Shown here piece after piece: positions 31,328 to 57,908 of a stretch of DNA of 64,000 nucleotides. The translations under genes were made by a program, and so were the position numbers. A model generated the notes under the pieces. It was not told where the DNA came from. It was given only the letters and a program-made list of their open reading frames with translations, and did not search any database. Source of the DNA: Escherichia coli (lineage in GTDB: Bacteria > Pseudomonadota > Gammaproteobacteria > Enterobacterales > Enterobacteriaceae); the NCBI RefSeq assembly GCF_013315695.1, contig NZ_CP054353.1, one strand, 5' to 3'. Position 1 is the first letter of the stretch; the number at the start of each line of letters is the position of its first letter.

Positions 31328-31556
31328 TTCAATAACCAATTGATTTATAATGTTTTATATCTCTTCGTTCCACGATGTGTCCACATTTAGTGGGGGGAGG
31401 GGAGTAAGCCCGCTACATTGTGGGCTTTGTCTTATAGTCTGATCACTGCTTCAAGTCGGTGAGGACACCAAAAAGAAAACCCGTAGTTTTTATGCTGCGG
31501 GTTTGTTTCATGTCTGTGAGATAGGGTGCCTTATCGACCTTACCCTGGCAACCGAT

Positions 31557-31583
31557 TGACGGGGGATTGCTCCCCCGTCGCGG
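31557..31583 (-). terminator. GC hairpin 3' of the hok-like ORF (candidate mRNA terminal stem-loop)
   Basis: gacggggg-attgct-cccccgtc, an 8-bp perfect stem that begins 6 nt after the hok-like stop. Confidence 0.5.
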
Positions 31584-31588
31584 TTTCC

Positions 31589-31729
31589 TTACTGCTTACA
31601 CTGTAAGAACGCCGCAAACTCCGCTCCCCAGAAGCTCATCCGTATTTCGCACAGTGAACCGTGCAGCATCCAGATGATGAGGATTGCCGTCACGCAGAAC
31701 GTGATGGCCGTAAGCGATTTTTGCGACAT
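31589..31729 (-). CDS. hok: Hok/Gef-family type I toxin (46 aa)
   Basis: An ATG at 31729 with AAGGAG 8 nt upstream opens MSQKSLTAITFCVTAILIIWMLHGSLCEIRMSFWGAEFAAFLQCKQ. One TM helix plus the SLCEIR...AAFL.CK signature of Hok proteins. Not in the track (<60 aa). Confidence 0.75.
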   Translation of the reverse strand: MSQKSLTAITFCVTAILIIWMLHGSLCEIRMSFWGAEFAAFLQCKQ

Positions 31730-31859
31730 AGCACTTGCTCCTTTTCCGGAGAGGCGCTAACCTTTCACTTGTCAAGGTAATGCGGTTAGGGCCTCGGTTA
31801 AACAGAGATGTTTTCCGGGGCCTTTCCACATCTGGCCTTCGGGTATTCCCTCCGACCAT
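31596..31859 (-). CDS. mok-like overlapping reading frame (translational coupler of hok); start uncertain
   Basis: The track's 87-aa ORF overlaps the whole hok-like ORF in another frame, as mok does in R1 hok/sok. No independent protein similarity recognised. Confidence 0.4.
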   Translation of the reverse strand: MVGGNTRRPDVERPRKTSLFNRGPNRITLTSERLAPLRKRSKCYVAKIAYGHHVLRDGNPHHLDAARFTVRNTDELLGSGVCGVLTV

Positions 31860-31957
31860 CAGCCGAAAGGCACCCGCGCGTAATTTACCGTTTCCTGAGT
31901 AAATTCTCCAAATAAAATTCCACAGTCAAAAGTACAGAAACAAAAACAGGTATGTGA

Positions 31958-32215
31958 TCACATCGCCGGAAGTGGCAGCGACATCTGCGCATCACCACGG
32001 TGTGACGCTGGCAGGCTCTGCCACGGAATATCCGGTGAAGTACCACCGCTGCGCTTTACGGTGAGTTTTTCGAAGCTCTCCAGCGTCGAGAAGGAGAGAC
32101 TGCATTCGGGATTGTTGCACTGGTAGAGCTTCTGCCGGACAGTGCGTGAGTCGTTCGCGGCGCGGCTTGTGCGGGTGCGCGTGCTCGCACCACAAAAAGG
32201 ACACGGAAAAGACAT
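31958..32215 (-). CDS. ogr: Ogr/Delta-family zinc-finger late transcription activator
   Basis: MSFPCPFCGASTRTRTSR...YQCNNPECSLSFSTLESF carries the CxxC-N22-CxxxxC pattern of P2 Ogr. Lies downstream of D as in P2. Confidence 0.85.
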   Translation of the reverse strand: MSFPCPFCGASTRTRTSRAANDSRTVRQKLYQCNNPECSLSFSTLESFEKLTVKRSGGTSPDIPWQSLPASHRGDAQMSLPLPAM

Positions 32216-32267
32216 GACGGAGACCTCCTTTTTTTCATGAAGGTGAATCTCCGTGATTTTATTCCTG

Positions 32268-33383
32268 TTATTCCTGTTGCGCTATCCATTCAGGAATTTT
32301 TAATTCCAGCTCAAGCCGCGTGGTGAAGCCGCTGTCGTCGATGTTGTGCTCCACCTTCGCCAGTACCCAGTCCTCCGCGTCGATGTCACTCTTGAAACCG
32401 GATACCGTGCCGCGCATTTCGGGGTACAGGTCGGGGCGACCGCGTGCCAGCGTGATGGAGAACTCAGCCGCGCCGCGCTGTAGCTGCTGCCATTTTGCCG
32501 CCGCTGCACGGCGTGCGGCCTCCTCGTTTTTGAAGGTTTTACGCATGACGTACACATTGCCGTCTGCGCCCTCCATGTAATCCCCCTCGCGGCTGCTGCT
32601 TTTCTCCTTTTTTGTTTTTTGGGCAGAACCACGTTTTGTCACGCTGACTTTTTTCTTTTTGCCAAAGTCCAGATCCAGCCAGTAAGCGCGCACCCCCGTG
32701 TACGCCTGCCGGTCTGCAATGCGGAAGTGATGGCTGTCACCGCTGCTGCGGGTGATGGCGAATGAGGGCAGCGGCTTTCCGCTGGCGCTCACCCCCTGTC
32801 CGGGCACGATGAAAAGCAGGGCACCGTTTTTGACGGTGGCGATGGCGCCCAGCATGTCCGCCATGCGCGTGAGAAACGAGATGTCACTTTCCTCCGTCTG
32901 GTCGGCGTGGTCGATTTCCACCTCTGCCAGCGAGGCGCTGATTTGTGCCTTCAGTCCGTAGCGGTACGCGATGGCAGAAACAACCTGTCCCACCGTCACG
33001 TCATGCCAGGACACTTCACGCTTCACGTTGAACTCCTGCCGGAAGTCTGCGCTGCTGGCCGTGATGGTGAGCCTATCCGGTGGTCCCTCATGTGTCACCT
33101 CGTCAACGATGAAGGTTCCCTTGTCTGTCAGCGCCTCACCTTTCCAGCCCAGCGCCAGACCCAGCGTCTGTCCGCGCTTCGGGAGTTGCACTCCGCCGTC
33201 GCAGTCGTCAATCGTGAGGGTTAACTGGTCCGCCTCAAATCCCCGGTTGTCGGTCATCGCCAGCGAGATGACCCGTCGGGTCAGCGCCGCGTTTTCCGTG
33301 CCCTTAACCGTGATGGAAAAATCAGGGATCTTCACGCACTCTGACAGACCGTTCAGGTATCCGCTTACGTCCGCAGGGTTCAT
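32268..33383 (-). CDS. P2 gpD-like tail/late control protein
   Basis: Track ORF 32268..33566. The internal start MNPADVSGYLNG gives 371 aa. Similarity to the gpD family is judged by eye. Confidence 0.85.
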   Translation of the reverse strand: MNPADVSGYLNGLSECVKIPDFSITVKGTENAALTRRVISLAMTDNRGFEADQLTLTIDDCDGGVQLPKRGQTLGLALGWKGEALTDKGTFIVDEVTHEGPPDRLTITASSADFRQEFNVKREVSWHDVTVGQVVSAIAYRYGLKAQISASLAEVEIDHADQTEESDISFLTRMADMLGAIATVKNGALLFIVPGQGVSASGKPLPSFAITRSSGDSHHFRIADRQAYTGVRAYWLDLDFGKKKKVSVTKRGSAQKTKKEKSSSREGDYMEGADGNVYVMRKTFKNEEAARRAAAAKWQQLQRGAAEFSITLARGRPDLYPEMRGTVSGFKSDIDAEDWVLAKVEHNIDDSGFTTRLELELKIPEWIAQQE

Positions 33384-33455
33384 CGCAATTTCTCCGTCTG
33401 TGTCTTCGTCCGGCGAAATACTCCCACGCGCACGGAGGCGCTGTAATCCTGCGTA

Positions 33456-33481
33456 TGTTGTCGGAGAACGGTGAGAACAGG
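33456..33481 (+). promoter_or_regulatory. candidate Ogr-dependent late promoter element (copy 1)
   Basis: tgttgtcggagaacggtgagaacagg, 23/26 identical to 52014-52039. Centred in the D/FI divergent spacer. Confidence 0.35.
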
Positions 33482-33545
33482 CAGCGCGTGAATGCGGGGC
33501 TGTTTTTCGGGAGGATGTCGCCACACAAAACACCAGGAGGTGCTC

Positions 33546-34727
33546 ATGAGTGAAACACGCTTTCACGGTGCACGCGTCAAAGAAAACACCGACCTTGTGA
33601 CCGCGATTAATGACATTGATTCCAGTGTCATCGGTATCGTGGCCACGGCGGACGATGCAGACAGCGACGCGTTCCCGTTAAACAAACCCGTATTGATCAC
33701 CCGCGTGGCGAATGTGCTGGGTAAGGCAGGCACAACAGGCACGCTGTACAAAACGCTCAAGGCGATTTCCGACCAGACCAGCCCGAAGGTTATCGTGGTG
33801 CGTGTGGCTGAAGCCGGAGAGGAAGGTGAGACACAGGATCAGCTTGTCATCGGTGGCTCGCAGGCTGACGGCAGCTACACGGGCATGTATGCCCTGCTGG
33901 TTGCTGAACAGGACGAGAGCATTGGTTACCGCCCGCGCATTCTGGCGGCTCCCGGCCTGGATACCGAAGCAGTCACATCCGCCCTGTGCGTCATTGCGGA
34001 CAAGCTCCGCGCCTTTGTGTACGCCGGATGTAACGGGTGCGACACGATGGCGGAGGCAATCACTTACCGTGCGAAGTTCTCCGCGCGTGAGCTGATGCTG
34101 CTGTGGCCTGACTTCATTGCCTACAACCCGGTGAGCGGAAATAACGAAACATTTCCGGCAGCGGCGTATGCGTGCGGGTTGCGTGCGCGGATTGACAGTG
34201 AACAGGGCTGGCACAAGTCACTGTCCAACGTGGCGCTGAAAAATGTTCTCGGTATGTCGCAGCAGGTGTTCTGGTCGTTGCAGGCCGAAGACAGTGATGC
34301 GAACAACCTGAACAACAAGGAAATCACCACGATTATTCGCCGTAACGGCTTCCGCTTCTGGGGGAACCGTACTGCCGAAACCAGCGACTACATCTTTGAG
34401 GTGTACACGCGCACAGCGCAGATTCTGGCAGATACCATCGCTGAGGCGCAGTTCGAAACCATTGACGAACCGCTGACCCCGGCGAACGTGAAGGACGTGA
34501 TTAGCGCCATCCGCGCAAAACTCAACGCCCTGGTCACCGCCGGGAAACTCATCGGTGCGGAGTGCTGGTATGACGTGCTGGACAACGGCACGACGGATTT
34601 GCGTCAGGGGCGCGTGCGCATCCGCTACAAGTACACGCCAGTGCCGCCGATGGAAGATCTGACGCTGTATCAGACCTTCACGGATGAGTATTTCGACTCC
34701 GCTTTTGCAACGCTGGGAGGTGCGTAA
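33546..34727 (+). CDS. contractile tail sheath protein (gpFI-like)
   Basis: Internal start MSETRFHGARVKE preceded by caggagg. FPLNKPVLITRV and the overall match to P2 FI. 393 aa. Confidence 0.9.
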   Translation: MSETRFHGARVKENTDLVTAINDIDSSVIGIVATADDADSDAFPLNKPVLITRVANVLGKAGTTGTLYKTLKAISDQTSPKVIVVRVAEAGEEGETQDQLVIGGSQADGSYTGMYALLVAEQDESIGYRPRILAAPGLDTEAVTSALCVIADKLRAFVYAGCNGCDTMAEAITYRAKFSARELMLLWPDFIAYNPVSGNNETFPAAAYACGLRARIDSEQGWHKSLSNVALKNVLGMSQQVFWSLQAEDSDANNLNNKEITTIIRRNGFRFWGNRTAETSDYIFEVYTRTAQILADTIAEAQFETIDEPLTPANVKDVISAIRAKLNALVTAGKLIGAECWYDVLDNGTTDLRQGRVRIRYKYTPVPPMEDLTLYQTFTDEYFDSAFATLGGA

Positions 34728-35243
34728 ATGGCTGTACCACGTTACGTTCGCCAGTTCACGCTGTTTGTGAACGGCAAAAACAAAATCGGCACGGTGACAG
34801 GCGTCACTCTGCCCAAGCTGACCCGAAAAACCGAAGCCTATCGCGGTGGCGGGATGCTGGGTGCGGTGCATATTGACCTCGGACTGGATGACGGCGCACT
34901 GGATGCCTCGTTCACCACCGGTGGGGTTGAAAAAGAGCTGCTCCAGGAATACGCCACTGACATTAACGAAGTGGCGCTGCGCTTTGTGGGTGAGCTGTTC
35001 ACCGATGGTGAGGAAAGTCAGCTCCTTGAGGTGGAGATGCGCGGACGCATCACGGAAATCGACCGTGGCGAAACCAAACAGGGCGACACCACACAGTACA
35101 CCTTCGCCGTCAAAAACACCTACTACAAGGAGTCGGTGGATGACAGTGATGTGACAGAAATCGACCTGCTGAACTTCATCTACAAAAAAGACGGCCAGAA
35201 CGTCTTTGGTGACCGCGTGAGTTCGGCGCTCGGTCTGAACTGA
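34728..35243 (+). CDS. tail tube protein (gpFII-like)
   Basis: 171 aa, immediately after the sheath gene. P2 FII size and position. Confidence 0.9.
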   Translation: MAVPRYVRQFTLFVNGKNKIGTVTGVTLPKLTRKTEAYRGGGMLGAVHIDLGLDDGALDASFTTGGVEKELLQEYATDINEVALRFVGELFTDGEESQLLEVEMRGRITEIDRGETKQGDTTQYTFAVKNTYYKESVDDSDVTEIDLLNFIYKKDGQNVFGDRVSSALGLN

Positions 35244-35289
35244 CAGCATTAACAGGGCGGCACATTGTGCCGCCACAGGAGAAAGAAAA

Positions 35290-35673
35290 ATGGCAGCAAA
35301 GAAAGATGACATCATGAACAGCGAAATCGTCGCAGGTGACACCACCACTGAAAACATCGATGTGGCAGAGGAAAAAACGGGGGTGAAGTTATCCTGCCCG
35401 GTGGTGCGTGGCGAACGCGTTATTGACTACGTGGAGATTGGCGAGGAAATCCGTCAGGCAGGCTCGTTGCGCGGGCTGTCTCTGATTGAGGTGCTGAACC
35501 TCAAAACGGACCCGATGATGACGCTGCTTTCGCGCGTGACCGCACCACGCCTGAAGCTGGCAGAAATCCAGACACTGGACACCGGTGATTTCGTGGCGCT
35601 GGCGACTATGGCTGCGAATTTTTTTGCTCCCACGGAGTCTGCGAAACCGTCCGTGGCGGTGATGGAAGCGTAA
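35290..35673 (+). CDS. tail assembly chaperone gpE-like (zero-frame product)
   Basis: 127 aa, between tube and tape measure. Contains the slippery run near its 3' end. Confidence 0.8.
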   Translation: MAAKKDDIMNSEIVAGDTTTENIDVAEEKTGVKLSCPVVRGERVIDYVEIGEEIRQAGSLRGLSLIEVLNLKTDPMMTLLSRVTAPRLKLAEIQTLDTGDFVALATMAANFFAPTESAKPSVAVMEA

Positions 35674-35837
35674 TCACGCTGGCGAAGTTCGACAACGTTG
35701 AAGAACTGGTCGCTGATATAGCAGTCGTGTTTAACTGGTCGCCCGGCGAGATATTCTCAATGCCTCTCGTCGAGGTGATGAGCTGGCGTGAGCGGGCGGC
35801 GCAACGTAGCGGAGTCCGCAACAGTGAAATCCCTTGA
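35290..35837 (+). CDS. gpE+E'-like fusion made by programmed -1 frameshift at T7G (about 35619-35626)
   Basis: After a -1 slip the frame stays open for 70 codons (..ITLAKFDNVEELVADIAVVFNWSPGEIFSMPLVEVMSWRERAAQRSG..) to the tga at 35835. This is the P2 E/E' and lambda G/GT paradigm. Confidence 0.65.
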
Positions 35838-38800
35838 TATTCGTGTCAGCTTTGGCGCAATTGACCGGCTGACATGCCCGACCGAAAACGCCCGCCGTCA
35901 GGTGGGCGCTCTCACTGAATCCCTTCAGAAGACGCAGAACAACATACAGGCGCTCGACAGACAGTCGAAGGTGTTCGATCGTGCCGCCGGAAATCTCAGT
36001 AAATACCGCGAACAGATTGCCCGCGCGGAGCAGAGGCTCGCCGGGCTGCGAAAGGCAGAGCAGAACGGTAACATCCTCTCCGAAAAGCAGCGCGAAACGC
36101 TGGCGGCACTCTCCGCGCGGCTTGAGCGCCTGAACGAGCTGCGCACGCGCGAGCGCGAAAAACTCCAGGCGGCGGCTGGCGAAATGCGTAAACATGGCAT
36201 TCTGCTTTCCGGCAGCAGCCGCACCATCGAAAGTGCCGTTCGTCGCACGCAGCAGTACAACGAGCAGCTCGAGCGTGAACGGCAGGCTCTGGCTCGCGTG
36301 ACGCAGGCACAGAGCCGCTATGAGGCCGCGAAGGCACAGGCGGAAAAACTGCGCAACACAGGGGCTGTGGCGATGGCGGCGGGTACAGGCGGCCTGTATG
36401 CGGCGCAGCGCATGATGGCTCCGGCGATGGAGTCCGAACAGCACGGTGCGGTCATCGCAGCCGGTTCGGGGGAAGGCGCACAGGATGGCGCACGTTACAC
36501 CCACATCATCCGTAACATACAGGCTGACGGTCTCGCTGATTTTGCCGGTGCTGCGGAGGCCGTGAGTGCGGTACGCAGCACGCTCGGCGCACTGGGCGAC
36601 ACCGGTGACAGGGAGCTTGAGCGCATCAGCCGTCGTGCGCTGGATATGCGGACCGTCTTTGGTGTTGATGTGCCGCAGAGCATTCAGGCCGCTGCCATCA
36701 TGATGAAGAACGGGCTGGCCGCCAGCAGTGACGAGGCTACTAACCTGATGACGGCAGGGATGCAGCGCATGTCCGCTGAAATGCGCGATGAACTGCCGGA
36801 AATTCTGCATGAGTATTCCACCCACTTCCGCAACATGGGCTTCACCGGCAGCGAGACAATGAGTCTGCTGGTTGAGATGGCAAAGCAGGGCAAGTTTGCG
36901 CTGGACAAAACCGGCGATGCCGTGAAGGAGTTCAGTATCCGTGGTTCGGATATGTCGAAATCCAGTGTTTCAGCGTATGAGACACTTGGCCTGAATGCCG
37001 AACGGGTGTCTGCTGCCATTGCTCAGGGGGGCAGTACCGCACGCCAGGCGATGCAGGTGACCGCCCGTGCACTGCTGGCCATCCGTGACCCGGCAGAGCG
37101 GGCGAACACGGCCATTGCGTTATTCGGCACCCCCGTTGAAGACCTTTCCGTTGACCAGATCCCGCAGTTCCTGAGGGCGCTGGCTGATGTTCGTGACAAT
37201 CTGGGCGATGTCACCGGTGTGGCAGACCGCATGGGGCAGACGCTGCGCGGTAATCTCTCCGGCGATATTCAGGCGCTGAGTGGTGCGTTCTCAGGGCTAC
37301 GCACGGACATCTTCGGTACTGTGACCGAGGATTTGCGCGGGCTGGTTCAGACGGTGAGCGCGTGGGTGACCCGGATGCGCGAATGGGTCGGAGAGCATCA
37401 GGCGCTGGTCAGGGTGCTGGTACTGGCGGGCGGGAGTGTTCTGGCGCTGTCTTCTACGTTCGGTGCGCTGTCACTGACGCTCGGGCTGATTGCGGGGCCG
37501 CTGGCAAAACTGCAACTGGGACTGGGGCTGCTGACGGGGGGCGGCGGCATTGGTGGTGCTGTCCGGCTTGTGTCTGCGATGGCGCTGCGCCTGACGGGGC
37601 TGCCTGCGCTGTGGGGGCTGGTCACGGGGGCGGTGTCGGTACTGGGTGGTGCAGTGGGGGCGCTGTTCAGCCCGGTCGGGCTGATTGTTGCCGCCCTGGT
37701 GGGCGGCGCGGTTCTGGTGTGGAAATACTGGGATCAGATCAGTGCGTTTTTTTCCGGCTTTTTTGCCGGAGTGTGGGAGGCGCTGCAACCGCTGCGGGAA
37801 GCCTTTGCGTCGCTGGCTCCGGTGTTCGGGCTGATTGGCGATGGCATCAAAGCCGTGTGGGAATGGTTCACCCGCCTGCTTGAACCTGCAAACGCCTCAA
37901 AAGAGACACTCGACAAATGCACCAGCGCCGGGGAGTCGTTCGGGAAAACGCTGGGGTGGGTCATTCAGAACATTGTGCTGGGGCCGCTGACACTGCTTCT
38001 TGATGGCCTCGGCACAGTGCTGAAGTGGCTGGGTGTTATCCCGGATGGCATCAGGGAAGCGCAGAAGGAGACGCAAAAACTCCAGGAGAGCGCCGCAAAA
38101 CAGGCCACACAAAAAGCGCCGGTTGCGTGGGAGTGGGATCCTGCACAGAAAAAAATGGTGCAGAAAACATGGTCGTGGTCATCAGATGCAGCGGAAAACA
38201 ACGGTGACAATAAACCCGCAATACCTGCCCCTGCGGTTCCCGGAGAGGTGAAGGGAACGTCAGACAATCCGGTCGGCAAACCCGGTAGTAAATCCCCGCT
38301 GGATGAGGCATGGTTCCGGCAGGGGATACAGAAAACCGCCAGCAACACCGGCGGGCTGCTTGAGGAAACCAAAAAACGTACTGGTCCCGGCGATATTGTT
38401 TTCAAAAACCTGCCCGGACCCGAAATCATTCACGGCGAGTGGAAAGCACCGCAGGTTATCCGGACAGTGCAGGCGGTATCGGCGGGCGGAGGACTGGCGG
38501 ATGCGCTGACAACGCTCTGGCAGAAACTCACCGGAAGACAGACTGCTTCACCCGTTCCGGTCGTGAATATTCCTGCGCCAGTGGAGAGAGTGGCACGTCA
38601 GGTATCCACGCTGCCACAGCCGCAGCACAACGAGGCAAATACAGAACTGGTTGCCGGTATTCAGCGCGTGCATGAGGCTGTGAACAGTCCGGGGGGAGAG
38701 ACGGTATCGCCTCCACCTGTGGTGAACGTTCTGATGCCAGCAGTGAATGTTCCTGCGCCAGTGGTGAGTGTGGCGCGTCAGGTATCCACGCTGCCGCAGC

Positions 38801-39288: not shown

Positions 39289-39301
39289 AGGAGACGCAAT
39301 T

Positions 39302-39760: not shown

Positions 39761-39761
39761 A

Positions 39762-39793
39762 TAAAAAAAGAGGGAGTGTAAAAAGCACTCCCT
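39762..39793 (-). terminator. intrinsic terminator T1 (minus-strand polarity)
   Basis: The minus strand reads agggagtg-cttttta-cactccct followed by cttttttt. Confidence 0.65.
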
Positions 39794-39880
39794 TATTGCC
39801 TTCATGGAAAAGAAGCAAATGTTGTCAATACATTCTGACTATATATAAATCGCCCGATGAAGGCAATGGTGATGTTCGGG

Positions 39881-39907
39881 AAATAAAAAAGCCCTCACAA
39901 AGAGGGC
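39881..39907 (-). terminator. intrinsic terminator T2 (minus-strand polarity)
   Basis: The minus strand reads gccctc-tttgt-gagggc followed by ttttttattt. Confidence 0.7.
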
Positions 39908-40070
39908 GGCATGCATTGTGTGAAGATTTAATTTTTCTGCTTGCAGGGGGATTATATTGAACGGTATTCATTCAATGCAATATTTTTAATTGTCATTATC
40001 ATTAATGAAAATGTTTCTTGTGTTTTTGTTGCTCTGATTACAATCCCGTTTATTACTGTGTCTTTGCGGC

Positions 40071-40096
40071 AAAAAAAAAGCCCGCACGGGGCGGGC
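40071..40096 (-). terminator. intrinsic terminator T3 (minus-strand polarity), downstream of the tfa pseudogene
   Basis: The minus strand reads gcccgc-cccgt-gcgggc followed by T9. Confidence 0.75.
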
Positions 40097-40140
40097 AAAG
40101 AATGTTTGCATGTGTAGAACAGTGCGGGATTATAAATATA

Positions 40141-40710
40141 TTATGCGTTCTGAAAAGTCCCCTTTGATGGAGATTCAGGCCATACCAGCGCATTATAACA
40201 ATCTTTATTCATCACGGAAGTGAACGTCAACTGCTGAAGTTCCCTAATATATTCAATCCACGTAGCCAACCTTCCCTTGTCTGCATTGCTGATGGTGCCG
40301 GGCAATAACTCAGATTGCCAGATTCTGATCCTCTCTTTTGCCTCCGGCAGCAGGGGATTTCGTTGTCATTCTGCTTTAGCCTGCCACTTTTCAGGTGGCA
40401 GCACATGACGAACAATATTTTCATCATCAAATATCCAGTTACCTGAGTCATCAGCACGTTGGTTAGCGTTAATATCAGAAGTATTAACAACACTAAAACC
40501 GACATGATTAAGTGTTGATGCCTCTCTGGTAATGGTGACAATAATATTATTTCGTTGTAAATCATTTTGATTTTATCTGGTCGAAAGGTCCCTGCTTCGT
40601 TATGTCAGTTTTATCGCCTTCAGAGGAAACCAGATTACTTTGTGCTTCTTTTTCTAACACATACAGTCCCGGAGTTAATATTGCCTGTTTTATGTTCTTG
40701 AGTGCATCAT
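40141..40710 (-). pseudogene. P2 gpG-like tail fibre assembly (Tfa) gene, disrupted
   Basis: Pieces in shifted frames: (MM)..LKNIKQ.. ; ..NNIIVTITREASTLNHVGFSVVNTSDINANQRADDSGNWIFDD.. ; an in-frame TGA at 40366-40368 ; ..RLATWIEYIRELQQLTFTSV..ALVWPESP. Compare P2 G [44 protein letters not shown]..VD...PEWP (from memory). Confidence 0.7.
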
Positions 40711-40765
40711 ATTAATCTCTTACATATTGTATCTGGTGAAATTTATAATTTTCTGAAGCTGCCTG

Positions 40766-40905
40766 AAAGAATTGAGTTTCCTGCAGGCTTTCAATGGTGT
40801 GATGAGGATATGTGGGAGAAACTCCAGTCTGCTCCTGCAGGGGGGGCTTACTGAACACTATCAAAGACAAATCTTCGTCGTTGATCGCATTCCCTTAACC
40901 TGACG
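40766..40905 (+). pseudogene. duplicated, frameshifted 3' fragment of a second gpU allele (U')
   Basis: About 80% nt identity by eye to 39636-39760 (..attgagtt..ctttca..ggtgtgatgaggatatg.gggaga..ct.cagtctgct.ctgcagg..ttactgaacac...aaagacaaa). No 5' part, and a G-run frameshift. Confidence 0.7.
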
Positions 40906-40938
40906 CCACCACCCCACACAGATGACGGGGTGGTGGCG
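40904..40938. other. 12-bp perfect GC-rich hairpin between U' and the convergent tail-fibre-side genes
   Basis: cgccaccacccc-acacagatgac-ggggtggtggcg. No T-run on either side. Confidence 0.6.
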
Positions 40939-40943
40939 TGATT

Positions 40944-41240
40944 TCACCAGTAACTAACCAGCAGCCAGAACAACAGGCATATTGCCACTGGTGCAGCAAA
41001 ATCCATCAGGCTTCCGGCATCCCACACGCGCGGATCAAAACCACCCCACCAGGGCATGTTAATTCGTTTCCCTTTCCCGAATTTTTCAATCCAGCGATAT
41101 TCTGCCTGGGTGTGTTCACGCGCAATGAAGAACGAGCAACCGGCTATCGCTCCGTAAACCCAGTTTCCCGTAAGAATGCCAGCCAGTACCTGCGCAGCCA
41201 CGGCACAAAGTGCATGAAGGACAGGCGTTATATCCATCAC
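40944..41240 (-). CDS. small hydrophobic (2-3 TM) protein of unknown function
   Basis: 98-aa ORF, last gene of the tail-fibre transcription unit. Hydrophobic N- and C-termini (..VLHALCAVAAQVLAGIL.. / ..FAAPVAICLLFWLLVSYW). Confidence 0.6.
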   Translation of the reverse strand: MMDITPVLHALCAVAAQVLAGILTGNWVYGAIAGCSFFIAREHTQAEYRWIEKFGKGKRINMPWWGGFDPRVWDAGSLMDFAAPVAICLLFWLLVSYW

Positions 41241-41249
41241 TCCCTCCCT

Positions 41250-41528
41250 TCAGCTCCATTCCCGAAGCGGTGCTTCCAGCTCCACCACATAATCAGAGAA
41301 CACAGAAACATCAAACGTATCATCAAGAATACGAATGTTGACAAAATAACCGTCATTCCGGATACAGACAGGTTCTCCCTCTTCATTTTCCCCTGTTTCT
41401 GTATAGGTGAAACCAATTTCATCGACTAACAGTTTGTTCTGGAGGTCTTCATTTTCCTCCCAGCCAAGAGATGACAGGAGGGCTTTAAACTGCTGTTTGT
41501 CATGAAACTTCAAAGTCAAATCTTTCAT
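41250..41528 (-). CDS. 92-aa acidic protein, occupies the position of the tail fibre assembly gene but is not Tfa-like
   Basis: ORF overlaps the H stop by 4 nt (coupled). No gpG motifs. Confidence 0.6.
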   Translation of the reverse strand: MKDLTLKFHDKQQFKALLSSLGWEENEDLQNKLLVDEIGFTYTETGENEEGEPVCIRNDGYFVNIRILDDTFDVSVFSDYVVELEAPLREWS

Positions 41529-45320: not shown

Positions 45321-45898
45321 TGCGGGCCTCCTGTGCTGTCACCGCCGCTCTTCACGCCACTGTGTTTGTGCGTGTGCAGCGTCACACCGTTTGAGGTGAA
45401 ATCACCGCCGCTGTGCGAGATACTGCCACTCATGGTTCCGCCTTCTGTCACCTCAATCGTTGTCGTCTTCAGATGGTTTGTGCAGGTGACGGTGGGGGTA
45501 TCCAGCGTCACGCCTGTTCCGGCCTGAATGGTGGCAGTTTTGATTCCGCTGGCGCTCAGTGCGCCAGCGTCCGCATCGTAGCGGAACACCGCGCCGTCAG
45601 GCGCTGTAACCACGATTTCCGTCAGGCTGCTGCCGGGCGCCGGATGTTCGCTGCTCCAGAGACTGCCGATGACGGACGCGGTCGCGGGGTCGCCACCGAT
45701 GCAGGCAATCATGACCTGTTCGCCCACGGCAGGCGGCAGCCAGACGCTGAACGCGCCCGCGCGTGGTGTGTTCCAGCGCAGCCAGTCGGTTTCCAGCTCT
45801 CCGCTGCGCACGCGAACGCGCCACGTTGTTTCGTCCACGGCAAAAATCACGCCCGTGCGGATGATATTTGCAAGCAGTCGCATGATTTCCGCTGTCAT
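45317..45898 (-). CDS. baseplate spike/assembly protein gpV-like
   Basis: 193 aa. ..VRVRSGELETDWLRW.. motif and position before W. Confidence 0.85.
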   Translation of the reverse strand: MTAEIMRLLANIIRTGVIFAVDETTWRVRVRSGELETDWLRWNTPRAGAFSVWLPPAVGEQVMIACIGGDPATASVIGSLWSSEHPAPGSSLTEIVVTAPDGAVFRYDADAGALSASGIKTATIQAGTGVTLDTPTVTCTNHLKTTTIEVTEGGTMSGSISHSGGDFTSNGVTLHTHKHSGVKSGGDSTGGPQ

Positions 45899-49041: not shown

Positions 49042-49160
49042 GACGAGCCTCCGTTAAAAAGTCAGGCGGTGGGCGAACGGTCAGAAGGTCGCGGAGTTAA
49101 AAAACCAGGTGACCGTTCGCGCCGCCTGTCGCCGGGGCGAAGTCGGTATGCGTGAGAGTC

Positions 49161-49958: not shown

Positions 49959-50007
49959 TGTTCTCTCCTCTTACGGGCGGTCAGCGCCCGCCCGTGGTTC
50001 AGGTAAA

Positions 50008-51069: not shown

Positions 51070-51078
51070 GGTTAATCC

Positions 51079-51948
51079 TCAGAAATCACAGGCGGTGTAA
51101 GCAATGCCGCCGCCGGTTACGCCAGTGTGAGCAGGTGCGTCAGCGCCCGTTGCGGAGAAGCGCTGATGCGTGTCGCTGTCCTGTGCCTGTAGCTGCGTAC
51201 GTAGCGTGGTCAGTTCGCGGGTCAGACGGGTGATTTGTGCGCGGTCTTCGTCGCGCTGGCGTTCCTGTGCGTTGAAACGGTCAAGCAGGTCAGCGTGCGC
51301 AGAGGCCACGCGCTCCACAACGTCACGCATCTGCGCAAACTGTTCGCCGTCCGTTTTACGGCTGCCGCTGATGAGGTTCATGACACGCGCGAACCACTGA
51401 ACGCCTTCGTCGTTCTGGCGCTGGTTCAGGGCAATGACGCCAGCCTCAATGGCATCGGTGAAAAACGGCGGCTCACACTGCTGATTGTTAAACGCCATCG
51501 CCTGCGCACGCTGCTGTGCGGCAAACTGCAGACGCTCAGTGCCAAGACTTGCCGGGCTGTCGGTCATCGCCAGTCCCTGAACATACGGTCCGCCCGTGAT
51601 GAATGACTGCGGGTAAAGCTCGATGCTGGCATAAATCTTTTTGCCGTCATCCAGCAGTTTCTTCATGCGTCCGGTGGGTTCAATTTCGGCATACAGCGCC
51701 GTGCGTCCCGCCAGCGGCCCGTCAGTGATGTCTTCTGCGCTCAGTGCCACCACATCCCCCATCGCCGCGAAGGCGCTGTCCGGGTGCGGTGAAAGGATGT
51801 GCTCAACGTTCACACGTGCGCCGTAGACGGACGGGTCATAACTGGCGGCGGCAGCTTTCAGCATGTCGCCACAGATTTCGCGCCCGTCTGAGGTCGTACC
51901 GGAAACGGCCACGCGGAATTTTTTTCGTTCAGGTTTCTTGTCTGCCAT
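51079..51948 (-). CDS. capsid scaffold/protease gpO-like
   Basis: Internal start MADKKPERKKFRVAVSGTTSDGR gives 289 aa. Confidence 0.85.
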   Translation of the reverse strand: MADKKPERKKFRVAVSGTTSDGREICGDMLKAAAASYDPSVYGARVNVEHILSPHPDSAFAAMGDVVALSAEDITDGPLAGRTALYAEIEPTGRMKKLLDDGKKIYASIELYPQSFITGGPYVQGLAMTDSPASLGTERLQFAAQQRAQAMAFNNQQCEPPFFTDAIEAGVIALNQRQNDEGVQWFARVMNLISGSRKTDGEQFAQMRDVVERVASAHADLLDRFNAQERQRDEDRAQITRLTRELTTLRTQLQAQDSDTHQRFSATGADAPAHTGVTGGGIAYTACDF

Positions 51949-52013
51949 ACGGCCTCCTCGAATATCGTTGTGCTCATGATGACGCGCCCTGCGGCCCGCG
52001 CTCAACGCGGCGT

Positions 52014-52039
52014 TGTTGTCGGAGAACCGCCAGAACAGG
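52014..52039 (+). promoter_or_regulatory. candidate Ogr-dependent late promoter element (copy 2)
   Basis: tgttgtcggagaaccgccagaacagg in the O/P divergent spacer. See copy 1. Confidence 0.35.
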
Positions 52040-52087
52040 AACAGGAAGCGCAGACGGGACGCGCGCGGGTAGCCTGTATGACAGGAG

Positions 52088-53842
52088 GTGACAGACGGCA
52101 TGATTCAGGACGCATTCATCAGGCTGCGGGCAAAACAGCTTTACTGGCAGGGTTACCCGCCCGCTGAAATATCGCGGCTGATGGGTATCAGTCAGAACAC
52201 GATTTATTCGTGGAAAAAGCGCGACGGATGGGATGAAACGCCGCCCGTGGAGCGGGTCACGCAGTCGATTGATGCGCGACTGGTTCAGCTGACCTCAAAA
52301 GCTGAAAAGAGCGGCGGTGATTTTAAGGAAATCGACCTGCTGACACGCCAGCTCGCAAAACTGAATGACAACAGGGGTGGAGCGGAAAAAAGCCCGCGAA
52401 AACGAAAGCTGAAAAACCATTTTTCCGAATCGCAGGTTGCCGCACTGCGCGAACACATCACCGGTCAACTGGCAGAGCATCAGCGACGCTGGTATGAGGC
52501 GCTGGAAGTCTGCCGTCGTGCCGGTGTTGATATTCGCATCATTGTGAAATCCCGACAGATAGGCGCGACCTGGTATTTTGCGCAGGAGGCACTGCTGCGT
52601 GCGCTGGATGAGAGCGTGAAATATCCGTACCAGCGAAACCAGATTTTTTTGTCAGCCTCGCGCCGTCAGGCTTTTCAGTTTAAAGGCGTGATTCAGAAGG
52701 CGGCACAGGCTGTGGATGTCGAGCTGAAAGGCGGTGACAAAATTGTGCTTTCCAACGGCGCGGAACTGCATTTTCTGGGGACATCCGCCGCGAGTGCACA
52801 GTCATACACGGGCAATCTGTATTTTGACGAATTTTTCTGGGTGTCGAACTTCATCACGCTGCGCAAGGTGGCAGGTGCGATGGCCACGCTGAATGGCCTG
52901 ACGCAGACCTACTTTTCCACGCCGTCATCGGAGATGCACGAGGCGTTTCAGTTCTGGAACGGCGCGCGGTGGAATGCCGGGCGACCACGCAGTGAGCGCA
53001 GGGAGATTGATGTGTCCCACCGCGCCCTGAAGAGTGGAGTGCTGTGCCCCGACAGTGCGTGGCGGCAAATCGTGACGATTCAGGATGCAGTGGACCTGGG
53101 CTGGACGCTCACCAGTATCGACAAAATCCGCAACATGAACTCGCCGGATGAGTTCCGCAATCTCTACATGTGCGAGTTTGTCAGCGACGGCGAATCCGCC
53201 TTCGACCTTAATGCCCTGCTGGGCTGTGGCGTGGATGGCTATGACGAGTGGAATGACTGGAAACCGTTCGCAGCACGTCCGGTGGGTAATCGTCCGGTGT
53301 GGATTGGCTACGACGCTAACGGCAGCAGCGGTAACGGCGACAGCGGGGCGCTGTCTGTTGTTGTACCGCCTGCTGTCAGGGGCGGCAAATTCCGCACGGT
53401 GGAGACGTTGCAGGTGCAGGGGCTGGAATTTGAAGAGCAGGCCCGTGTGATTGAACAGTTCACGCACAAATACAACGTCCAGCATATTGGTATCGACGTG
53501 ACCGGCGGTAACGGCGAGGCGGTGTACCAGATAGTGCGGCGGTTCTGGCCTGCCGCCGTACCGTACACGTTCACGCTGGCATCCAAACGCGCGCTTGTGC
53601 TGAAGATGTTGCAGATTATTCGTGCGGGGCGCTGGGAGTATGACCGGGGCGAACGTGAGCTGGTCAGGGCATTCAACGCCGTGCGCAAGGCAAAAACGGC
53701 GGGCGGCGCAATAACGTATGAAACAGACCGCACGCGCGGCGTAAACCACGGCGACCTCGCGTGGGCAACCATGCTTGCCGTCATTAACGAGCCGCTGGGC
53801 GATGAGGACGGTGCAACAGGAATGCGGGTGATTGAGTTCTGA
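52088..53842 (+). CDS. terminase large (ATPase) subunit gpP-like
   Basis: 584 aa, divergent from O and followed by the portal gene, as in P2. Confidence 0.9.
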   Translation: MTDGMIQDAFIRLRAKQLYWQGYPPAEISRLMGISQNTIYSWKKRDGWDETPPVERVTQSIDARLVQLTSKAEKSGGDFKEIDLLTRQLAKLNDNRGGAEKSPRKRKLKNHFSESQVAALREHITGQLAEHQRRWYEALEVCRRAGVDIRIIVKSRQIGATWYFAQEALLRALDESVKYPYQRNQIFLSASRRQAFQFKGVIQKAAQAVDVELKGGDKIVLSNGAELHFLGTSAASAQSYTGNLYFDEFFWVSNFITLRKVAGAMATLNGLTQTYFSTPSSEMHEAFQFWNGARWNAGRPRSERREIDVSHRALKSGVLCPDSAWRQIVTIQDAVDLGWTLTSIDKIRNMNSPDEFRNLYMCEFVSDGESAFDLNALLGCGVDGYDEWNDWKPFAARPVGNRPVWIGYDANGSSGNGDSGALSVVVPPAVRGGKFRTVETLQVQGLEFEEQARVIEQFTHKYNVQHIGIDVTGGNGEAVYQIVRRFWPAAVPYTFTLASKRALVLKMLQIIRAGRWEYDRGERELVRAFNAVRKAKTAGGAITYETDRTRGVNHGDLAWATMLAVINEPLGDEDGATGMRVIEF

Positions 53843-54891
53843 TGAAAAAACAAAAACGAAAATATACCCGCCGCGATGACGGCGTGGAGCTGGCAGAGGC
53901 ACTGCGCCGCCAGCCGTCGTTAAGCGCCTTCTCGTTCGATGGCCCTTACGATGCGCACGCGCTCGACCTGCTGGATAACGCATACTGCCTGAGTAACGGC
54001 AGATACTATGAAACGCCCGTTGACTGGTACGGGCTGGCGCGGGCATCCCGGCAGACCTCGTGGCATCAGTCGGCGCTGTACTTCAAACGAAATGCCATTC
54101 TGGGCTGCTTCATTCCGCACCGGCTGTTGTCCCGGCAGGCGTTCTCCGCCTTTGCGCTGGACTGGTTTGTCTTCGGGAATGCGTTTCTTGAACTGCGTAC
54201 CAACAGGCTGGGCGGAAAACTGGAACTGCGCCATGCCCTGGCAAAATACGTCCGTCGTGGTGTTGAGCCGGATGTGTACTGGTTTGTGCAGACGGGCGAG
54301 CAGGAGCACGAGTTCCGTCAGGGGCGCGTCTGTCATGTGCTGAACCCTGACATCAACCAGGAGATGTACGGAATGCCGGAATATCTCGGCGGCCTGTTGT
54401 CTGCCAGTCTGTCGCATTCGGCAGATCGTTTTCGCAAACTCTACTATGACAACGGTTCACACGCAGGCTGCATTATTTACGTGGGAGCAGCACAGGTTGA
54501 CCGCGAAAGCATGCAGGCGCTCGAAAGAGCGTTGCAGGGCGCAAGAGGCGGTGGGGCATTCAAAAACCTGCTGCTCCAGGCACCGAACGGCGGGAAGGAC
54601 GGTGTGCAAATCCTGCCGTTCCAGCAGATCACCGCCCGGGATGAGTTTATGAACGTCAAGGCTGCCTCCCGCGATGATGTGCTGGCTGCTCACCGCGTAC
54701 CACCACAACTGATGGGCGCAATGCCCAGCGGACAGGGGTCATTTGGTGATGTGGAGAAGGCGGCAAGAGTGTTTGCGATCAACGAACTGATGCCGGTGAT
54801 GGAGGCGATGAAGCACGTTAATGACTGGCTGGGCGAGGAGGTGATCCGCTTTAACCCTTACGCACTGCTGGATACCCCGCCCACATCCTGA
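53842..54891 (+). CDS. portal protein gpQ-like
   Basis: 349 aa. ATGA-coupled to P. Confidence 0.9.
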   Translation: MKKQKRKYTRRDDGVELAEALRRQPSLSAFSFDGPYDAHALDLLDNAYCLSNGRYYETPVDWYGLARASRQTSWHQSALYFKRNAILGCFIPHRLLSRQAFSAFALDWFVFGNAFLELRTNRLGGKLELRHALAKYVRRGVEPDVYWFVQTGEQEHEFRQGRVCHVLNPDINQEMYGMPEYLGGLLSASLSHSADRFRKLYYDNGSHAGCIIYVGAAQVDRESMQALERALQGARGGGAFKNLLLQAPNGGKDGVQILPFQQITARDEFMNVKAASRDDVLAAHRVPPQLMGAMPSGQGSFGDVEKAARVFAINELMPVMEAMKHVNDWLGEEVIRFNPYALLDTPPTS

Positions 54892-54918
54892 CGCGCTCCG
54901 CTTGTCTGCTGCTTCGCC

Positions 54919-54941
54919 GGGGCATAAAAAATTTATGCCCC
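54919..54941 (+). other. 10-bp hairpin after the portal gene
   Basis: ggggcataaa-aaa-tttatgcccc. Confidence 0.6.
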
Positions 54942-55169
54942 GACTCACCAGCTCCGGTGTGTCACGCACCAGGCATCTCAGGGATCTACCAGGTTGAATA
55001 ACCTGTCAGCACACGCCGCACCAAAGCGCATCACAGGGCGTGTGATGCATCAGCCCATACTTCACACACAACCAATAAAACATCGCGTCAGGGGCGCAAT
55101 CAGCCGCATTTCTGGCGATTTCTGAGGGTGCTTTCAGACCCCAAATTGCGGGCTGTTCCCCGGCACCTG

Positions 55170-55300
55170 CGCGCAGAAAAAACGCGTTTTTTTGTGCACG
55201 CACGGATCCTTGACGGATCCAGCCGCCACGGGGGCCGGAAGGGCAAAAAGTCGTTCAAAAAAATTGTGCAAATTTGTGCACTATTGTGCAGTAGAGCGAT
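55170..55300. other. presumed cos / packaging-site region with repeats
   Basis: Position after Q as in P2. agCCGCCACGggggccggaagggc loosely resembles the complement of the remembered 186/P2 cohesive ends. Palindrome a6cgcgt7. acggatcc x2. TTGTGCA x4. Confidence 0.3.
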
Positions 55301-55449
55301 ACATGATTTTCGCCTTTATTTCAGTGTGTTCAGGTGGTCATTCTCAATACCCATTTGGTGAGAGACAGGAATAAAAATGATCTTTATCAGTAGGTTATGT
55401 GTGTGATTAAATTAGATGCAGCACGTTTAGTCCCCAGAACCCAAGACCA

Positions 55450-56256
55450 ATGAAAGATAACAATCAGAAAAAAATGATATGGCATGTTGCCTGTGATGAA
55501 TCTGGCGTTGATGGGCAGCCATTCTACGGGTTTGGGAGTCTCTGGATGAGCTATCAGAGGCGCGCTGAACTCACTCGCATGGTACAGGATTTGAGAAAAA
55601 AGCATGGATGCAGTGATGAGCTCAAATGGCAGAAAGCACATTCAAAGCGTAATGCAGCTTTTTATAGCGACGTCATTGATGTGTTTTTTAGGCACAACTG
55701 GATGGCTTTTCACTGTATTATTGTTGAGAAGTCTAAAGTAGAAAAATCATATCATGGTGGGGATTATGATCTTGCAATGCGTAAGCATTTTTGCAAGCTT
55801 ATTGAAACAAAAATAGGTAACGTGATCCAAAGGTGGCCTCATGCGGAATGTGAGTTCCTTATAGAAGTTGATCCCCTGCCATCTCGTTACAAAAAAGCCG
55901 ATGAAGAGTTTCACATAATTGCCAACCATTCTCTGGCCCGAAAGTATGGGCGCAAGGACATAATTAAACTAGTTGAAACAAAAGACTCAAAAACATCGGA
56001 ACATATTCAGCTTGTCGATTTTTTATTAGGGGCTGTAATGTGTGCATATCAAAGGAAAGCCACTTCTCCAGCGAAACTGGCTATGGCAGAGAAAATCGCT
56101 TCTTATCTTGGGTGGGAATCATTACGGCACGATACCTGGCCGACAGAGCGAAAATTCAATATCTGGTTGTTTTTTGATAAAAAGAAGGGGCCAAGAGATA
56201 TTGAAACGAAAGAGGTTAATTTGCGATATAAATTACCCCCTTTGCGTAAAAAATAG
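55450..56256 (+). CDS. DUF3800-like protein (268 aa), function unknown
   Basis: N-terminal MIWHVACDESGVDG and C-terminal IQLVDFLLGAVMCAY resemble the two hallmark motifs I recall for DUF3800. Visibly AT-rich compared with flanking phage genes. Opposite strand to the early operon. Confidence 0.7.
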   Translation: MKDNNQKKMIWHVACDESGVDGQPFYGFGSLWMSYQRRAELTRMVQDLRKKHGCSDELKWQKAHSKRNAAFYSDVIDVFFRHNWMAFHCIIVEKSKVEKSYHGGDYDLAMRKHFCKLIETKIGNVIQRWPHAECEFLIEVDPLPSRYKKADEEFHIIANHSLARKYGRKDIIKLVETKDSKTSEHIQLVDFLLGAVMCAYQRKATSPAKLAMAEKIASYLGWESLRHDTWPTERKFNIWLFFDKKKGPRDIETKEVNLRYKLPPLRKK

Positions 56257-56487
56257 CGCCAACCTCTCAGCTGGCGTGGTTGGAGTCCCAGTCTGACGAC
56301 GAAGTTACCAACTAGGCGGTATCAACTTTTGGGGGGCCGCCTCTAAATCCCCAAAACCTTGAAATCTGCGTAAAACATAACGTTGAAAACGTTTAAATTC
56401 AATAAATTTTTCTGTGAATCGGGGCGTCTATATCCGCCCCTCTTAAGTTTAGCTTCACTTCCCCTGGGGATGCTTCACCGTATTGCC

Positions 56488-56799
56488 TTATTCGGGGAAT
56501 AACGCCCTGATATTTCCGGCCATCTGATTGGTTATCTGTGCGGTTGGTACTGGCTGTGACACGGGGCGTTCTGTCCTGGTTTGTGTCACGGATAACGCCT
56601 CATCGTCAGCCCATGCAGCCAGTCGGTGAGCCTCTGCTGGATTCATTTTCAGAAGTGCCAGCCCGGCCAGAAAAGCCACGCGTTGGCCGCTTTTGCGGGC
56701 TTCTGGTGTAAGGCTGTCCAGCCAGGCGCATGCTTCGCTTTCGTTCTTGACGGCCGCAGGCTTCAGATAGAAACTTATCCGTCTGGTTGGTGTCGTCAT
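56488..56799 (-). CDS. parR: ParR-like centromere-binding protein (103 aa)
   Basis: The internal start MTTPTRRISFYLKPAAVKNESEACAWLDSLTPEARKSGQRVAFLAGLALLKMNP lies 4 nt after the parM stop. Compare R1 ParR ..RRTIAFKLNPDV...LDSIPQGERS..AALTAGLALYRQNP (from memory). Confidence 0.75.
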   Translation of the reverse strand: MTTPTRRISFYLKPAAVKNESEACAWLDSLTPEARKSGQRVAFLAGLALLKMNPAEAHRLAAWADDEALSVTQTRTERPVSQPVPTAQITNQMAGNIRALFPE

Positions 56800-56803
56800 T
56801 GGT

Positions 56804-57763
56804 TTACTCCTTGTCCATTGCGTACAGCCCATTAACCAGAGCAAACTGTGGCACCCCGTCCGCGATGAAAGTCGCATTAACTCCGCAGGCTTCGCGGATA
56901 GCGGGTGCCACAATCTCCGCCCCTCCACCGACAACCATCACCCGCCCATAACCCGAAAAACCCGCCAGCGCGCGGATCACGCGTTGTTTCAGTGTTTCTT
57001 CCTTTTCACGAATAACCGCCATCAGGCTGTCGTAATGCGCGTCATTGTGGATGTGCTGGCGCAGCCAGGCTTCATCATGGCGATGTTCGATAATGGTATT
57101 GGCGATATGGTGGCTGGTACGCATACCGTTAGTGGCCATCACCGACAGTACGGCATCGGCCATCAGAGAAACGCCTACGTGTGGATCGCAAAACACCTGG
57201 CTGATACCTGCCAGTTGTCCCTGAACCTTTGCCACATCCAGCGTGGTTCCGCCCAAATCCACAATCAGCAGTGATTCAAACGGACTCATGTCAGCCAGTG
57301 CCTTAAAGCCAGCCGGAATGGATTCAGGCATAACCCGTACGTTACGGATAGTGAATGCTTCGCCGTTCTGGTACTCCACCGGGCGCATAACGTTCGCTTT
57401 TTTGCGGTTGATGTTGGCCATGTCCGGCTGTGCGTTTGTGTCGAAATACTCGCTCAGTGGCAGGGTGACAACCACATCCACCTCCTGTGGCGTGATGCCT
57501 GATTTGACCAGCGCGTGATGAATGGCAATGACATTCACATCGCTGTACTGGTATTGCGTGTCGGTCGTCTGGACAAAGCGATCGCTGACCGGATCAAAAC
57601 CATAGCGCACGCCATCAAGCATGTAGTTCGCGGGCTGCGTGCCACCGAACGGCGCAGACCATTCCGACTTGAAGCTGTTCGGGCTGATGGCGTTGCGGCG
57701 TTCGCCGTTCTCAGTCCATGCCAGCTTGATGTTGGTGGAGCCGTCGTCGATACAAATTTTCAT
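56804..57763 (-). CDS. parM: ParM-like actin-family segregation ATPase (319 aa)
   Basis: MKICIDDGSTNIKLAW.., LIVDLGGTTLDV, VMVVGGGAEIV (phosphate-1, phosphate-2 and adenosine motifs). Collinear by eye with plasmid R1 ParM over the whole length. Confidence 0.9.
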   Translation of the reverse strand: MKICIDDGSTNIKLAWTENGERRNAISPNSFKSEWSAPFGGTQPANYMLDGVRYGFDPVSDRFVQTTDTQYQYSDVNVIAIHHALVKSGITPQEVDVVVTLPLSEYFDTNAQPDMANINRKKANVMRPVEYQNGEAFTIRNVRVMPESIPAGFKALADMSPFESLLIVDLGGTTLDVAKVQGQLAGISQVFCDPHVGVSLMADAVLSVMATNGMRTSHHIANTIIEHRHDEAWLRQHIHNDAHYDSLMAVIREKEETLKQRVIRALAGFSGYGRVMVVGGGAEIVAPAIREACGVNATFIADGVPQFALVNGLYAMDKE

Positions 57764-57794
57764 GTCGCTTTTCCTTATGTTGATTAATTAATCG

Positions 57795-57908
57795 TTTACA
57801 GGATTTTTAAATCCCGTTTTTGCCTGTTTTGTGCGCACTTCATATATCGCGGCACGTTTTTTGCTCATTTACGGGATTTGTGAATCCCGTTTCTGTCTGT
57901 TTTTTGTT
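57795..57908 (-). repeat. two 39-bp direct repeats, each with an internal palindrome, upstream of parM (parC-like candidate)
   Basis: tttacaGGATTTttAAATCCcgtttttgcctgttttgtg (57795-57833) and tttacGGGATTtgtgAATCCCgtttctgtctgttttttg (57868-57906). 33/39 identical, 73-bp spacing. Confidence 0.5.

Follow-up and report, generated by a model that had tools for sequence, protein, structure and literature searches.

The 64,000-nucleotide stretch of Escherichia coli DNA analysed here (contig NZ_CP054353.1 of assembly GCF_013315695.1; hereafter the window, whose coordinates are used throughout) contains pheT and, at 30988-31287, ihfA; a P2-family prophage comes next and extends beyond the end of the window. 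Inward from the attachment site attR, the order is a hok cassette, ogr, D, a 22-kb late block, a cargo slot, parR, parM, gene A and the early operon. This report concerns two modules of the prophage that are related to the stability loci of plasmid R1: the partition genes parMR, which adjoin the replication initiator gene A, and a hok/mok/sok-type toxin-antitoxin cassette, which adjoins the attachment site. The carrier of both is an ordinary P2-family phage (Peduoviridae), temperate and integrating, and the reading developed below, held with slightly more than even confidence, is that both modules act on the transient circular form of the phage genome, whether excised or newly injected.

The parM gene (56804-57763, minus strand) encodes an actin-like ATPase of 319 amino acids, matching PF06406 (E = 1e-82) and PF21523 (E = 1e-68). 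The protein aligns end to end with R1 ParM (PDB 1mwk; residues 2-316, E = 1e-92) at 47% identity, and retains the nucleotide-binding motifs DDGSTNIK, DLGGTTLD and GGGAE. The start of parR (56488-56799, minus strand) lies 4 nt past the parM stop codon. It encodes a centromere-binding adaptor of 103 amino acids that matches PF10784 (E = 3e-23, positions 1-71 of 72), the Pfam family of R1 ParR/StbB, and PHROG 2515 (E = 8e-57); a sequence search found no relative of ParR among solved structures. The preliminary description, made from the bare sequence, had recognised these ParM and ParR homologues, and the profile matches bear it out. Gene A (57840-60686, minus strand), which ends 76 bp upstream of parM, encodes the 948-residue rolling-circle replication initiator gpA (PF05840 Phage_GPA, E = 5e-129); the counterpart in E. 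coli A24 is annotated by the Prokaryotic Genome Annotation Pipeline (PGAP) as "replication endonuclease". The protein is longer than that of P2 (948 versus 761 amino acids), and the added C-terminal part has no Pfam match.

Between gene A and parM, two 42-nt direct repeats, 73 bp apart, span the gene A stop codon (57792-57906, minus strand). Each holds a conserved 20-bp palindrome of the pattern ACGGGATTnAnAAATCCnGT (57798-57817 and 57871-57890), which is unique to these two sites in the window, with 4 strand-matches against 0.15 expected by chance. The last codons of gene A overlap the first of the two. Palindromes are found upstream of parM in all related loci examined, which come from E. 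coli, E. albertii and Salmonella; 9 of 12 have both, and a single site passes the pattern in the remaining 3 (O157, L005; phage 520873, L009; Salmonella, L012), the second O157 site being off by one base. In a Plesiomonas relative with a ParM of only 62% identity, two repeats occur at the corresponding position, 72 bp from each other. The two palindromes may be a parC site or an operator, and are a reasonable candidate for the sequence to which ParR is predicted to bind. The arrangement resembles that of R1 parMRC (parA) in the order candidate cis-site, parM, parR and in having repeats that flank a central region upstream of parM. It differs in its two 20-bp palindromes, as R1 parC consists of ten iterons, two sets of five direct 11-bp repeats, and in its setting, an integrated phage in which parMR stands directly downstream of a rolling-circle initiator and its stabilising function is putative.

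Of 5426 complete E. coli genomes, 1306 have the 1.5-kb parMR stretch, with O157:H7, O104:H4, O111 and sequence type 131 (ST131) among them, and 1327 have the matching type of gpA. On these counts parMR is essentially fixed in this replication module, a standing component of it and not a variable moron. In Plesiomonas, Serratia and Enterobacter, the three genera for which the context was visible, P2-like prophages show the same order gpA-parM-parR-[cargo]-portal, and the closest ParMs outside Escherichia, at 54-63% identity, come from Plesiomonas, Hafnia, Serratia and Enterobacter. Within the group, the ratio of nonsynonymous to synonymous substitution rates (dN/dS) of parM is 0-0.2 (36 pairs from nine loci), which points to strong purifying selection on parMR. 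On the synteny across genera, the low dN/dS and these identities, the association of parMR with P2-type replication genes is therefore old and upheld by selection. The same block (E. coli-type gpA-parM-parR-portal, ParM 98% identical) was also seen in a contig titled Vagococcus sp. WN89Y (L013), a Gram-positive organism, where it is probably assembly contamination.

The second module is a hok/mok/sok-type type I toxin-antitoxin cassette (31470-31893, minus strand), a discrete mobile unit in that similarity to P88, Chuche, A24 and Shiga toxin (Stx) phages is bounded at these coordinates; the start at 31550 given initially left out its 3′ part. The hok toxin gene (31589-31729, minus strand; 46 amino acids) matches PF01848 (HOK_GEF, 29.9 bits against a cut-off of 22) and PHROG 251, "MokW-like host killing" (E = 1e-22), in agreement with its initial assignment to the Hok family. 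An open reading frame (ORF) that overlaps hok in a different frame (31596-31859, minus strand) is in the ORF listing and would, by the known hok/mok architecture of R1, act as mok. At the 3′ end of the hok mRNA (31477-31535, minus strand) lie an fbi element, AAGGCACCC (31535-31527), and a terminator-like hairpin (31504-31477). When a 353-nt RNA (31876-31524) was folded, the 5′ tac element GGGUGCCUU (31875-31867) paired with fbi, and the first 15 nt paired with the last 15 (31875-31861 with 31541-31527) in both the minimum-free-energy and the centroid fold (z = -6.96 against shuffled sequences). Such tac-fbi closure of the 5′ and 3′ ends is typical for hok mRNAs.

The antitoxin side of the cassette is less sharply defined. 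A candidate Sok promoter and antisense RNA of about 58 nt (31735-31827, plus strand) comprises TTGCTC (31735-31740), a 17-nt spacer and TAACCT (31758-31763); as read from the sequence, the RNA would end at a hairpin (31790-31822) followed by TTT. Both the promoter elements and the T-run hairpin sit where the sok promoter and terminator lie in R1. In a permissive scan, the Rfam sok model RF01794 matched positions 31716-31875 (minus strand; 48.4 bits, E = 1e-9), below the gathering score of 59, and at the gathering threshold no sok match was obtained in the window. A consensus promoter scan at threshold returned none for hok or sok. The promoter and RNA, which fall inside the Rfam match, are accordingly described as candidates.

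The hok cassette is kept in five relatives (mean column identity 87%), and its ORF, fold and terminator are intact in all relatives examined. This bears on whether the two modules are decaying relics without current function, which we consider highly improbable. Some host prophages are indeed degraded, and many chromosomal hok loci of E. coli K-12 are inactive, both of which count toward decay; the intact hok features, the low dN/dS of parM and its preserved ATPase motifs speak against it. At 90% identity or more, the cassette occurs in 984 E. coli records. The copies in P88-like phages match it at 92-98% identity (92% for P88 itself), and outside these the closest locus is hokW of the Stx phage 933W, at 81% nucleotide identity. 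At blastn sensitivity just 35 of 72,556 plasmid records match. The cassette is therefore not of the R1 hok/sok (parB) type. It shares with R1 hok/sok and 933W hokW/sokW the Hok/Gef toxin, the overlapping mok-like ORF and the tac-fbi closure of the mRNA, and with R1 the position of the candidate antisense promoter and terminator; unlike in R1, killing is predicted here, and Hok is 39% identical to R1 Hok across 31 amino acids. The locus is best described as a cassette that moves on its own and is nearest to hokW of Stx phages. Copies at 96.6% identity (window 31516-31893) were also seen on large E. coli plasmids of 142-165 kb, e.g., NC_022333.1 and NZ_CP023347.1, and the cassette therefore does move from prophages to plasmids or the reverse. 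The suggestion that the two modules are independent selfish morons thus stands for hok, with its own mobility, but not for parMR, which is fixed in the gpA lineage and syntenic across genera.

These comparisons also decide against recent capture of both modules from an IncFII/R1-like plasmid through recombination. Stability loci of these two families do co-occur on R1-type plasmids, e.g., pAA of enteroaggregative E. coli 042 (PMC2808357). However, ParM is only 47% identical to its R1 homologue, and among at least 5000 PLSDB matches no plasmid ParM fell at 60-95% identity; records at 95% or more represent this same prophage, genuine plasmid ParMs reach about 52% identity at best, and the nearest ParMs belong to other P2-like prophages. 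A comparison with IncF plasmid homologues had been proposed as a check, and in a rough neighbour-joining tree (no support values) the prophage ParMs stand apart from the R1 clade. The relatedness of hok to hokW, the divergence of Hok from R1 Hok and the few plasmid records with the cassette argue in the same direction, as do the distance of about 26 kb between the modules in the prophage and their differing distributions. A recent IncFII-like origin, one of the initial proposals, is thus refuted by these comparisons and is scarcely credible; an ancient plasmid origin of parMR is likely.

Integration of the prophage was confirmed from its attachment site. A 25-bp att core, AAAGAAAAAAGGCCGCAGAGCGGCC (31305-31329), identical to the ihfA terminator hairpin, marks the junction of prophage and chromosome as attR. 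In E. coli A24, which has a prophage at the same site with an early arm 98% identical, this core is doubled (positions 8025-8049 and 45679-45703 of locus L004), and the far copy adjoins btuC with the integrase beside it. The core is repeated at both ends of the A24 prophage and the element is therefore integrated, at the ihfA terminator and beside ihfA as first described. The phage attaches at this terminator and restores it on integration. An Rfam match to the small RNA (sRNA) STnc540 (window 31229-31373) crosses the chromosome-prophage junction, so that the 3′ part of this sRNA region is phage-derived here.

The window stops before int, and the far end of the prophage lies outside it. By the P2-type gene set and order (ogr, D to portal Q, the cos-side slot, gpA, the early operon, C and int), as judged from Pfam matches, collinearity with P88 and A24 and the P2 reference map, the element is nevertheless assigned to the P2 family. 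On the circular phage map, hok/sok, attP, int, C, cox, the early genes, gene A, the presumptive parC, parM and parR form a single contiguous block. The two accessory slots of the P2 map to which the modules had been assigned are therefore the two ends of one conserved arm. Their positions were correctly given, with hok after ogr by the att site and parMR after gene A, but parMR is not the content of a variable slot; the region that varies among relatives runs from parR to the portal, and parMR is its conserved flank. Nor does the P2 reference map have a cargo slot between ogr and attP, where it shows nothing. Both modules were found in every complete element examined (P88, A24, AR_0085, pZ1323PEC0009-2 and 520873). 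Independent presence and absence of hok and parMR among phage records was considered and dismissed, as the records that seemed to lack one (500465-2, 569R5, Entero_P88(23) and one for 520873) are truncated predictions or remnants.

A partition system, an addiction cassette and a replicon in one element are plasmid-like in combination, and it had been proposed that the element alternates between integrated and episomal states. In the strongest form of this idea, a facultative phage-plasmid would, under some conditions or in some hosts, last over many generations as a circular episome of low copy number, in alternation with integration; gpA would replicate it, ParMRC would partition it and hok/sok would enforce its upkeep. 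Some records fit such a state. The PLSDB entry pZ1323PEC0009-2, deposited as a plasmid, holds the whole phage as a 34,461-bp circle, with a junction of int arm, 20-bp core and hok arm that makes a precise attP. A Plesiomonas relative was assembled as a separate 32-kb contig that begins at int. For comparison, 21 PLSDB records have P2-type gpA (which comes without parMR) and none of them has the size of a phage, a contrast that would favour an episome although the numbers are too small to discriminate. In the phage collection D6 is the one other phage with a ParM, and it is a plasmid prophage of the P1-like kind; maintenance as a plasmid has been suggested in print for P2-like phages with this partition system, about a quarter of those in E. 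coli (Rousset et al., 2022; PMC9122126).

Other evidence goes against long-term episomal life. In complete E. coli genomes, parMR occupies 1452 chromosomal places and 2 on plasmids (1454 in total), and among the 72,556 records of the plasmid collection just two are phage-sized, one circular and the other linear and partial. All of the annotated complete relatives have an integrase and att sites. No plasmid-type or theta-type replication gene was found in the early arm of the window or in the complete relatives P88, A24 and AR_0085, in all of which gpA is the sole replication protein found, and gpA belongs to a repressor-controlled early operon. In these respects the element differs from D6, which is kept as a plasmid and whose ParM/StbA-type partition protein is 47.8% identical, and from other phage-plasmids such as P1, N15 and SSU5, while sharing with D6 the possession of such a protein by a tailed temperate phage. 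Circular contigs fit spontaneous induction equally well; the related phage phiSM is spontaneously active, and the counts do not allow statistics. Alternation with an episomal state is thus not supported by location and gene content, although one circular attP record exists, and the phage-plasmid is, in our estimate, unlikely. A variant, in which the circle passes through generations in a carrier or pseudolysogenic state after excision or infection and then reintegrates or enters lysis, is given the same low probability.

The position of parMR suggests another possibility, that the pair was co-opted for something other than partition, such as interference with ParMRC plasmids or competing phages, lysogenic conversion or defence. 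The gpA-gpQ interval is a documented hotspot of anti-phage defence (Rousset et al., 2022; PMC9122126). The cargo slot between portal Q and parR (54892-56487), whose flanks but not contents are common to relatives, holds a DUF3800 gene in the window (55450-56256, plus strand; PF12686) that is a candidate defence gene by its PADLOC match (PDC-M04A, E = 3e-35), and in relatives an AAA ATPase with an S8 peptidase, DUF4760 or HicAB. ParR falls into three allelic types (window 56488-56799, minus strand; L005-L007), which share the first 18 residues and a C-terminal NIxxLFPE and are otherwise about 50% identical to one another, whereas ParM is 98-100% identical across loci and the palindromes upstream are likewise constant. 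Divergent ParR alleles beside an invariant ParM could reflect such a role, and even where the prophage is degraded, as in O157:H7 and ST131, ParM has stayed intact. On the other hand, PADLOC gave no match for ParM, ParR or Hok; unlike hotspot cargo, parMR keeps its place and make-up from genus to genus; and cis repeats on the phage's own DNA, by its replication gene, are the arrangement expected of self-partition. Co-option is therefore regarded as quite unlikely.

Action on a transient circle is favoured because systems analogous to this one handle the excised form of an integrated element with a ParM-type system. The SXT/R391 integrative and conjugative elements (ICEs) form an excised circle that replicates by the rolling-circle mode, and owing to their srpMRC and hipAB loci the element is lost less often (Carraro et al., 2015; PMC4489591). 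They are the best functional analogue, being integrated elements with a ParMRC-type system and a toxin-antitoxin pair, although they are conjugative, their proteins are only distantly related, and function was established there by experiment and here is predicted from the genes. In the CGP3 prophage of Corynebacterium glutamicum, AlpA couples the circular phage DNA to filaments of AlpC and is required if that DNA is to replicate efficiently; induction of alpAC comes early, once the prophage has excised (Donovan et al., 2015; PMC4446434). That system too belongs to an integrated prophage and pairs an actin-like protein with a DNA-binding adaptor, which in CGP3 binds upstream of its own operon; it differs in the family of the actin-like protein and in its Gram-positive host.

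By analogy, the most likely role of parMR is type II partition or positioning. On this view ParR would occupy both palindromes beside gene A, and filaments of ParM would shift the extrachromosomal circles that gpA makes by rolling-circle replication. Acting after infection or excision, the system might keep the transient episome from being lost or clumped before it integrates or is packaged. The hok/sok cassette, a separate mobile type I unit by attP, probably serves to punish loss of the element or to abort superinfection. Expression at this stage and a resulting benefit to the phage are what such a scheme would predict.

Several observations weigh against this interpretation. The candidate ParR sites number just two, compared with the ten iterons of R1 parC, and may be a mere operator. 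No co-variation was seen between the palindromes and the three allele types of ParR; this lends no positive support to binding, and could be explained by the conservation of the 18 N-terminal ParR residues. As a test of binding, co-variation proved uninformative, since the palindromes do not change. No consensus promoter was found by the scan upstream of parM, and parMR may then have to be expressed by read-through of the early operon. For a cell already on course for lysis, partition would bring no evident gain. Finally, literature searches returned no experiment on this partition system, and those on Xuanwuvirus, P88 with ParM, hok with P2-like phages, or phage-plasmid with Peduoviridae yielded nothing on function.

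The phage itself is closest to P88 and other members of Xuanwuvirus (P884B11, Chuche and PhiR44_2) and to Citrobacter phage phiSM. All share the int-C-cox...gpA-parM-parR arm at 96-98% nucleotide identity and the hok cassette by attP at 92-98%; for P88, the early or replication arm as far as it lies in the window is 97-98% identical. P88 and phiSM are plaque-forming integrating phages, the former inducible and the latter spontaneously active, and the paper that describes them lists the partition gene merely as a "fitness" gene (PMC6456863). By contrast, the att site at the ihfA terminator and the DUF3800 cargo differ from those of P88, and the late arm is divergent. The late block, with the virion and lysis genes from D to portal Q (32268-54891), was delimited by blastn against P88, A24 and pZ1323 and a Pfam GPD match, and ends with portal Q (53842-54891). 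Over 32281-54958, with a G+C content of 58-63%, it is just 70-75% identical to P88 and A24 while its flanks are 97-98% identical, and it is rare in E. coli, being covered to at least 80% in just 3 of 5426 complete genomes (94-96% identity). As judged from these blastn identities, the prophage is a mosaic, a recombinant of two P2-family lineages. A24 shows the same contrast: positions 55148-64000 are 98% identical, the hok cassette and its flank 97.5% and parMR 100%, yet its late region is different. A24 also has an inserted hxsABCD cluster (His-Xaa-Ser radical SAM; L004, 41174-44571), with a truncated gene D on one side and ogr on the other, and there is thus a further cargo site near the att end.

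Of the other features in the window, the late-gene activator ogr (31958-32215, minus strand) matches PF04606 Ogr_Delta (E = 2e-13). A low-G+C stretch (44-46%) in the tail-gene region (39800-41500) includes two ORFs without Pfam or PADLOC match (40227-40565, minus strand, and 40938-41429, plus strand), which may be further cargo. In the early operon (61145-61629, minus strand), Rfam matches to C4 antisense RNA (61432-61519, 79 bits) and isrK (61555-61629, 63 bits) lie directly upstream of a gene for a 76-residue "derepression protein" (61145-61375, PF25738). This module looks like the immI type of P1 and P7, with an antisense RNA in control of an antirepressor, placed in a P2-like early operon.

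The finding itself is not new. Both modules are annotated in P88, the other Xuanwuvirus phages and phiSM ("plasmid segregation protein ParM" and "MokW-like host killing"), and the analysis re-describes these annotated genes together with a published speculation. Nonetheless, this partition system is present in about a quarter of complete E. coli genomes, and no paper was found that states its benefit to an integrating phage. If the system does stabilise or position the phage circle, the blurred line between integrated and plasmid-like life that is known for ICEs would extend to phages, and the rarity of prophage loss would also be accounted for. Were the circle in addition inherited as a facultative episome, a quarter of the P2-like prophages of E. 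coli would be the phage counterpart of the SXT/R391 ICEs.

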